Shown piece by piece: positions 11,829 through 11,950 of a stretch of DNA of 64,000 bases; within the stretch, counting starts at the first letter, position 1; each line of letters opens with the position of its first letter. Under the pieces are notes generated by a model that was not told the DNA's origin, made no database searches, and was given only the letters and a program-made list of their open reading frames with translations. The stretch is from a virus (taxonomy: Duplodnaviria; Caudoviricetes), in IMG/VR virus record IMGVR_UViG_3300028048_000091, positions 42,705-106,704 of that record. One strand, 5' to 3'. The position numbers and the translations under genes are program-made.

Positions 11829-11885
11829 TTAATTTAAAGTTTTAAAAAATTATTGTTTAAAATTAAATGTAGTGAACCTATTAAT

Positions 11886-11934
11886 TAGATTTTAGCCGTT
11901 TTTAAAGAGGTGGCAAGCACTACAAATCCCCTCT
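11886..11934 (-). promoter_or_regulatory. SAM-II riboswitch
   Basis: AGAGG-GGAUUUG-UAGUGCUUGCC-A-CCUCU-UUAAAAAC-GGCUAAAA: P1 stem plus conserved GAUUU, UUGC and GCUAAA, located between promoter and metK. Confidence 0.8.
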
Positions 11935-11942
11935 ATCGTTTG

Positions 11943-11950
11943 CAAATATA
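11943..11950 (-). promoter_or_regulatory. -7 promoter box (TATATTTG) for metK
   Basis: TAnnTTTG 8 nt before the riboswitch. Confidence 0.7.

Follow-up and report, generated by a model that had tools for sequence, protein, structure and literature searches.

The leader of a phage metK gene raises the question of how an RNA resembling a SAM-II riboswitch could control its gene where the classical target of such control, a Shine-Dalgarno (SD) sequence, is lacking. The locus lies on the minus strand of a 64,000-nucleotide stretch of viral DNA (hereafter, the window) from a large rumen phage, represented by a 106.7-kb IMG/VR virus record. The size of this record, at a CheckV completeness of 27%, indicates that the source is probably a jumbo phage, and PHROG matches in the window agree with the accessory region of a large phage. 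An initial annotation of this DNA proposed a phage-encoded SAM-II aptamer, an alternative pairing partner for one of its internal segments, and an expression platform other than SD occlusion, possibly a transcriptional one. The phage setting is secured by the position of the window within the virus record; the remaining claims are taken up below together with the evidence that bears on them. The best explanation of the locus, to which we assign a probability of about 0.6, is that the phage metK transcript begins with a SAM-II-class riboswitch that acts through an expression platform other than an SD sequence or a terminator.

The aptamer and its gene

The gene encodes a complete SAM synthetase of 396 amino acids (metK, positions 10638 to 11828, minus strand), which matches all three S-AdoMet synthetase Pfam domains with E-values from 6e-35 to 6e-18 and whose start, at 11828, lies directly 3' of the aptamer. 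On the other side stands a Bacteroidota-type -7 promoter box of the form TAnnTTTG (TATATTTG, 11943 to 11950, minus strand). The first helix of the aptamer, P1, begins at 11934, 8 nt past this box, as the initial annotation had read it. Among 24 related leaders, 22 have such a box just 5' of their aptamer, and the Weinberg seed file of RF01726 carries a remark to annotate a 'UAnnUUUG promoter'.

A scan of the whole window at Rfam gathering thresholds (GA) gave no family that reached its threshold. A permissive local scan matched both SAM-II models below threshold and no other family: RF01726 with 35.1 bits (GA 44, E=3e-5) at 11939 to 11882, and RF00521 with 17.2 bits (GA 36, E=0.11). The claimed match to the SAM-II consensus, checked in this way with covariance models, therefore stands for the class but not for membership by gathering score. 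The parts of a SAM-II aptamer can nevertheless be read off in order, all on the minus strand. P1 pairs AGAGG (11930 to 11934) with CCUCU (11906 to 11910) around the GAUUUG...GCUUGC loop; it is present in the Rfam alignment and covaries in the relatives (GUGG/CCAC, CGAGG/CCUCG, AGAGAG/CUCUCU, AGGG/CCCU). Loop L1, GGAUUU (11924 to 11929), has AUUU columns that are invariant or nearly so and would, by analogy with the solved structure (PMC3303485), supply the U-run of the SAM-II major-groove triplex. L3 (UUAAAAAC, 11898 to 11905) aligns with the A-rich L3 of RF01726 and is A-rich in all relatives. The pseudoknot helix P2b pairs UUGCC (11912 to 11916) with GGCUAA (11892 to 11897), skipping U11894, and the CUAA columns are invariant.

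The solved SAM-II structure shows how the ligand is held: its adenine is sandwiched by the loop bases U21 and G22 and forms a pair with U44, the base of GCUAAA that P2b leaves free; U21-A45 and U20-A46 belong to P2b, the L1 uridines make a triplex, and P2a continues the helix 3'-ward (PMC3303485, PMC5352136). Base for base, P2b of the window has the register of U20, U21, G22 and C23 of the crystal structure, in agreement with the SS_cons_1 line of Weinberg. U11894 is the equivalent of the ligand-contacting U44, all ligand-contacting positions are present in register, and SAM would be expected to insert its adenine between U11915 and G11914. A methionine or SAM gene is likewise in place, with metK 3' of the aptamer in the window and in every aptamer-bearing phage relative. 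Judged by its sequence and by its relatives, the element is a genuine but divergent SAM-II-class aptamer directly 5' of a phage metK gene, and it would bind SAM. Its sub-threshold score is explained by the insertion of a hairpin, by a shorter loop and by an Rfam model that ends about 10 nt past GCUAAA. The window and the relatives L294 (39.5 bits) and L298 (23.3 bits) score low against RF01726 partly because P2a and the hairpin fall outside the model; cellular Bacteroidales metK leaders score 45 to 54 bits. With P2a outside the current Rfam models, such members (23 to 39 bits) score poorly or are missed.

The P2 helices and an inserted hairpin

Relatives were gathered from IMG/VR, JGI metagenomes and exact-protein look-ups, giving 17 distinct phage leaders with metK starts. 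The first two IMG/VR pattern scans returned at least 120 matches each, mostly chance ones, and a filter for the full core was then applied. Eight exact-protein look-ups gave usable upstream DNA; the contig of L037 (P0002) starts at the gene, and L043 (P0017) duplicates L024. A more specific motif scan found three further viral leaders (L288, L290 and L291) and SAM-II leaders in cellular genomes. The latter precede metK in Tannerella and Parabacteroides, an FGase-family gene in Parabacteroides and a phage-like metK in a MAG labelled Eubacteriales; others were found in Gemmatimonadales and, with terminator platforms, in two Desulfobacterales. The comparison drew on some 24 related leaders of phage and bacterial origin, and relatives lie on viral contigs of 216 to 387 kb. 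The phage MetK falls within a clade that comprises some 22 protein clusters with 62 to 99% identity, with cellular MetK well apart at about 50%; a blastn search of the locus against GenBank phages returned just short metK coding matches, in Staphylococcus and Acinetobacter phages. The aptamer is absent upstream of the related phage metK genes L008/L009/L025/L028 and L038/L039 (66% and 74% identity), of which one directly follows an upstream ORF (on a 387-kb contig of the same sample series) and the other follows nrdD.

The initial annotation noted correctly that UGUAGUG (11918 to 11924) is perfectly complementary to CACUACA (11868 to 11874), and it took the latter for an alternative pairing partner. 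Alone, this complementarity is barely unusual: 237 of 5000 shuffled tails gave an equally long or longer perfect helix with the P1 loop. Comparison identifies the helix. In the compact phage leaders L022, L024, L040 and L046, the 3' strand of P2a begins 0 to 2 nt past the 3' strand of P2b (GCUAAA), as in UGUAGAC/GUCUACA, UGGGAC/GUCCCA and UGUGGC/GCCACA. Because the downstream strand sits where P2a belongs in these leaders and covaries with its partner, UGUAGUG/CACUACA is the aptamer's own P2a, which continues P2b without interruption in the compact relatives and is separated from it by a hairpin in the window.

Both helices are well preserved by compensatory change. In a plain MAFFT alignment of 16 leaders, P2a and P2b were 92.7% paired, against 20 to 53% for slid partners, and none of 500 shuffles reached their covariation score; RNAalifold predicted the P2a helix exactly and unprompted. 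In a covariance-model alignment of 26 distinct sequences, P2a was 91% paired with five of seven pairs changed on both sides, and P2b 97% paired with three of five; the flanking pair of P2b, one of the three, varies between C:G, G:C and A:U. These two alignments were used because MAFFT, given compact and insert-bearing leaders jointly, misaligned the 3' strands of P2a. A custom covariance model comprising P2a, P2b and the hairpin has a single match in the window, at 82.6 bits. Among sequences outside its build, it gives 35 to 39 bits to cellular Bacteroidales metK leaders, 31 to a Gemmatimonadales leader and 26 to 33 to compact phage leaders. Its placement of P2a in the cellular leaders L297 and L295 was not trustworthy and was set aside.

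In the lineage of the window, the 3' strands of P2b and P2a are separated by 14 to 35 nt. In every case this segment folds as a hairpin, whose stem differs in sequence from one leader to another (AAUCUA/UAGGUU, AAUUCC/GGAAUU, AAGUCU/AGAUUU, AAUCU/AGAUU). The hairpin of the window, AAUCUA-AUUAA-UAGGUU, occupies 11875 to 11891 (minus strand), and the four compact leaders have none. Over the 26 distinct sequences the hairpin is 65% paired, with five of six pairs changed on both sides; for P2a, P2b and hairpin together the figure is 13 of 18 pairs, equalled in 0 of 500 shuffles. As modelled, the insertion makes P2 a three-way junction in this lineage, a case of the SAM-II fold tolerating a hairpin within a strand of P2.

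A hairpin-split P2 was also seen in a Gemmatimonadales MAG (L292, 2917 to 3020), where a CCGCC/GGCGG insert is followed by UGCCACA and a terminator (AGGGCCC ... GGGGCCCUUUUCU) has its 5' arm within the insert's loop; this architecture is thus not restricted to Bacteroidota or to phages. The core itself is altered in the phage leader L044 (1173 to 1247), where three changes coincide in the ligand pocket: it has GAAUUC instead of GAUUU in L1, CUCGC instead of CUUGC in P2b, ACUGAA instead of GCUAAA in the tail, and a weak P1. Here the U21-A45 pair becomes C-G, and a C in L1 could complete a C+.G-C triple. Such an RNA would lack the uridine carbonyls by which the SAM sulfonium is said to be read, so that it may bind something else or be decaying.

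Cellular Bacteroidales metK leaders have the identical core, GAUUUGUAG(U/C)GCUUGC, and a hairpin right after GCUAAA, which makes it probable that the phage acquired the module by capture from a host of this order. In a contig from an RNA-library run, 27 other bases stand in place of 281 bp 5' of the promoter (window 11998 to 12280). This replacement and the leaders L007, L021 and L023 together indicate that the gene 5' of the riboswitch varies among near-identical phages and that the unit of promoter, aptamer and metK stays intact. In four RNA-library runs, viewed as contigs alone, one 11.8-kb contig covers the entire locus and could derive from DNA or from the source assembly; another such run has a contig gap over 11782 to 11938, which carries no evidential weight.

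About 830 bp 3' of metK, the window encodes a 304-amino-acid protein (8893 to 9807, minus strand) whose residues 96 to 196 match the SAM-lyase family PF23780 in Pfam (35 bits). A PF23780 gene follows metK, directly or past one to three small genes, in most related contigs (among them L040, 2783-3730; L043, 3361-4179; L047, 3502-4194), and DNA methyltransferase genes lie 5' of metK in L040 and L043. Two 420-amino-acid ORFs occur elsewhere on the minus strand of the window (14885 to 16147 and 29619 to 30881), the first of which matches the transposase PHROG phrog_506 (E=3e-109).

Start-codon pairing and the control of metK

The 3' strand of P2 (GGCUAA...CACUACA) holds no SD-like purine run, in keeping with the earlier view that the platform departs from classical SD occlusion, and the metK AUG follows 39 nt past the 3' strand of P2a. 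In Bacteroidetes, where SD sequences are missing, RNA structure around the start codon tunes initiation (PMC6847099), which makes a helix at the start codon a plausible platform. Such a helix is part of the minimum free energy (MFE) fold of the leader. Its 5' strand (CUACAUUUAAUUU, 11860 to 11872, minus strand) overlaps the 3' strand of P2a by 5 nt, and its 3' strand (AAAUUAAAUGGUAG, 11822 to 11835, minus strand) holds the metK AUG (11828 to 11826) together with codon 2. The helix has -8.9 kcal/mol, with shuffle p-values of 0.012 and 0.006.

Equivalent helices of differing sequence recur in 12 of the 17 leaders, in about six lineages, at -8 to -10.5 kcal/mol (CAUUAAUUU/AAAUUAAUG, CCAUUUAAU/AUUAAAUGG, CAUUUAAUUA/UAAUUAAAUG and ACAUAAUAUUAAUU/AAUUAAUUUUAUGU are examples). 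All 12 have the three AUG bases paired with per-sequence shuffle p-values of at most 0.036, values to be read in the light of the ease of chance pairing in AU-rich leaders. In each, the 5' strand consists of the last 2 to 5 nt of the P2a 3' strand and the following 9 nt or so. The leaders L294 and L291 have a start-codon helix as well, and Tannerella metK leaders have one of 12 bp (p = 0.007); it is absent or non-significant in the GUGGUG subgroup (L042, L045, L065 and L288) and in L044, L047 and L165. The helix and its recurrence probably point to SD-independent translational control.

In L165 (7813 to 7964) and L290 (4291 to 4385), on viral contigs of 216 and 351 kb, it is instead with the insert hairpin, and with each of its two arms, that the start region AAUUCUAAACUAAAAAUGGAAAA shows complementarity (-12.3 kcal/mol, 0 of 300 shuffles); P2a is weak there (GGUG/CACC). 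In the cellular metK leaders L295 and L302 (Tannerella) and L297/L308 and L309 (Parabacteroides), AUGAGUU pairs with an upstream (A)AYUCAU, and the flanks covary (GAUUCAUUACAA/UUGUAAUGAGUU, AAUUCAUAG/CUAUGAGUU, CUCAUGUAU/AUACAAUGAG). In Bacteroidales, SAM-II elements may usually act through a hairpin of this kind at the start codon. An anti-sequestor of the apo state, formed with L3 or the insert hairpin, was also sought; it gave just AU-rich matches, to which we attach no weight.

We propose the following mechanism. The aptamer would fold as an H-type pseudoknot of P1, the U-rich L1, the A-rich L3 and a P2 composed of P2b (UUGCC with GGC-U-AA) and P2a. The 3' end of the P2a strand continues directly into an AU-rich segment, and the two together would pair with the metK start site from -7 to +7. 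P2a is mostly unpaired without ligand (PMC5352136), so SAM should stabilise it. Binding of SAM would fix CACUACA in P2a and thereby change the pairing partner of the start codon, and the pairing state of the start codon would set the rate of MetK synthesis in a phylum whose initiation is SD-free and sensitive to structure.

For the direction of this control, we rank repression by SAM first and favour it slightly over all other outcomes taken together. On this model, the pseudoknot locked by its ligand would offer the remaining AU helix a flush stacking surface, and the single strands rich in A would be buried. To our knowledge, all characterised SAM riboswitches repress. The same aptamer and start-codon helix could also work in the opposite sense, a less probable reading that we entertain tentatively: without SAM, CACUACA and the bases that follow it would sequester the AUG and codon 2, and SAM, by locking CACUACA in P2a, would free the start codon and make the leader a natural ON-switch. 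Plain competition, in which the P2a strand pairs with the AUG and codon 2, predicts for the lineage of the window that SAM frees the start site. In the CUACA lineages (the window, L041 and L074/L110), 4 to 5 nt belong to both P2a and the start-codon helix, the duplexes of L294 and L291 suggest a similar or larger overlap, and P2a is ligand-dependent in the literature (PMC5352136). The window and L007, whose MetK proteins are 99% identical, differ in the second codon (GUA in one, UCA in the other), and CUAC pairs with either.

Several points speak against activation by SAM. In the compact leaders the two helices have just the terminal CA in common, and nearest-neighbour energies indicate that stacking flush on P2a would make up for the pair that is lost. 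It is not obvious what purpose a positive feedback on metK would serve, and feedback repression is what one would expect of the homologous leaders in cells. Modelling with the pseudoknot strands blocked raised the predicted unpaired probability of positions -3 to +6 from 0.13 to 0.40 in the window, with a similar rise in L007, L021 and L023, but gave the opposite sign in L022, L024, L065, L074 and L110; with its sign inconsistent between lineages, it was rejected as a guide to direction. Were the leader of the window and its CUACA-type relatives SAM-activated, which is less likely than not, MetK would be made only while SAM remains, for example before the SAM-lyase-family neighbour depletes it, and this would be, as far as we know, the first natural SAM ON-switch. 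That the leader is regulated in another way or not at all is unlikely.

Less probable still is the transcriptional platform that the initial annotation had considered, in which UGUAGUG/CACUACA would be an alternative SAM-sensitive helix acting with the U-rich tract as a terminator or attenuator. The U/A-rich stretch UUUAAUUUU does lie directly 3' of CACUACA, as had been observed, and SAM-II elements with terminator platforms exist in Desulfobacterales (L296/L303), in Gemmatimonadales (L292) and at S. meliloti metZ (PMC9373788). A phage relative, L291 (about 408 to 470, on a 275-kb viral contig), has a strong terminator-like hairpin (AUCCAGAAU/AUUCUGGAU) and a U-rich run between aptamer and metK, possibly a terminator platform in this one lineage; its P2a strand is also complementary to AUGAGUAAA. 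In the window, however, the helix in question is homologous to the P2a that adjoins P2b in the compact relatives, and a terminator stem would have to hold some 43 nt of structured RNA between its arms. Other bases interrupt the U-tract, which is also poorly conserved, with 0 to 3 U in the first 4 nt past P2a among relatives and CAAG or UAAG in L042 and L045, and the U/A stretch pairs and covaries with the region 5' of the AUG. A search of the leader and its surroundings (11500 to 12300) found no terminator-like site, that is, no G+C-rich hairpin with a U-tract before the gene, between aptamer and metK. Scarcely credible, finally, is a relic of a host metK riboswitch, captured, no longer regulatory and kept as a 5' UTR: the sub-threshold Rfam score, the related phage metK genes that lack the aptamer (L008/L009/L025 and L038) and the mutated core and weak P1 of L044 would fit such a history, but the ligand-contact positions are invariant, and P1, both P2 helices and the hairpin of the insert are kept up by compensatory changes between phage lineages that share just 62 to 87% MetK identity.

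Relation to known systems

The leader offers a testable answer to the question of translational riboswitching in SD-free Bacteroidota, namely that the 3' strand of the pseudoknot would continue into a start-codon helix. In addition, jumbo phages here combine a putative SAM sensor with metK and, nearby, with a SAM-lyase-family gene and DNA methyltransferases, a grouping that suggests active management of the host's SAM pool by these phages and that is relevant to restriction-modification and BREX-type defence. Literature searches that paired SAM-II or SAM riboswitches with phage turned up no earlier description of a SAM-II riboswitch carried by a phage, and the paper on the 'Jug' jumbo gut phages does not mention SAM genes or riboswitches.

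The closest known family is SAM-II 'long loops' (RF01726; Weinberg et al. 2010, PMC2864571), from Bacteroidetes and marine sources, which is the best Rfam match of the window. The two share P1, the GAUUUG, GCUUGC, A-rich L3 and GCUAAA core, the TAnnTTTG context and the presumed host phylum, and the cellular Parabacteroides and Tannerella metK leaders, with identical core, belong at 45 to 54 bits to the same comparison. The RF01726 seed was once titled 'SAM-II long insert', but its inserts lie in the P1 loop and L3, whereas that of the window is a hairpin in the 3' strand of P2. The RF01726 alignment annotates P1 and P2b alone and stops about 10 nt past GCUAAA, so that P2a of the window lies beyond the end of the model. 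Unlike the members of RF01726, the window element is phage-borne and stays below the gathering score.

With classical SAM-II (the metA motif, RF00521, 2QWY), the element shares the H-type pseudoknot, the putative triplex of L1 with P2b and the unpaired U of GCUAAA that would face the ligand. The classical arrangement in which P2a continues P2b is exactly reproduced by the compact phage leaders. Classical SAM-II has its SD in the 3' strand of P2, where it is directly occluded; the window has no SD, an AUG 39 nt past P2a and a P2 interrupted by a hairpin. A start codon tens of nucleotides 3' of the aptamer is known from S. meliloti metA, where SAM-II acts 'at a distance' (PMC9373788), but that system needs an SD inside the aptamer and has a terminator, both of which the phage leader lacks.

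Riboswitches have been called rare in phages, the examples being glutamine riboswitches in Melnitz-like phages and pelagiphages and a psbA-associated element in cyanophage (PMC9004378). Like these, the window has a metabolite-sensing leader beside an auxiliary gene in a large phage; the ligand class and the host phylum differ. The aptamer class is thus a known one, and what is new is its phage setting, the hairpin-split P2 and a start-codon helix contiguous with P2a.
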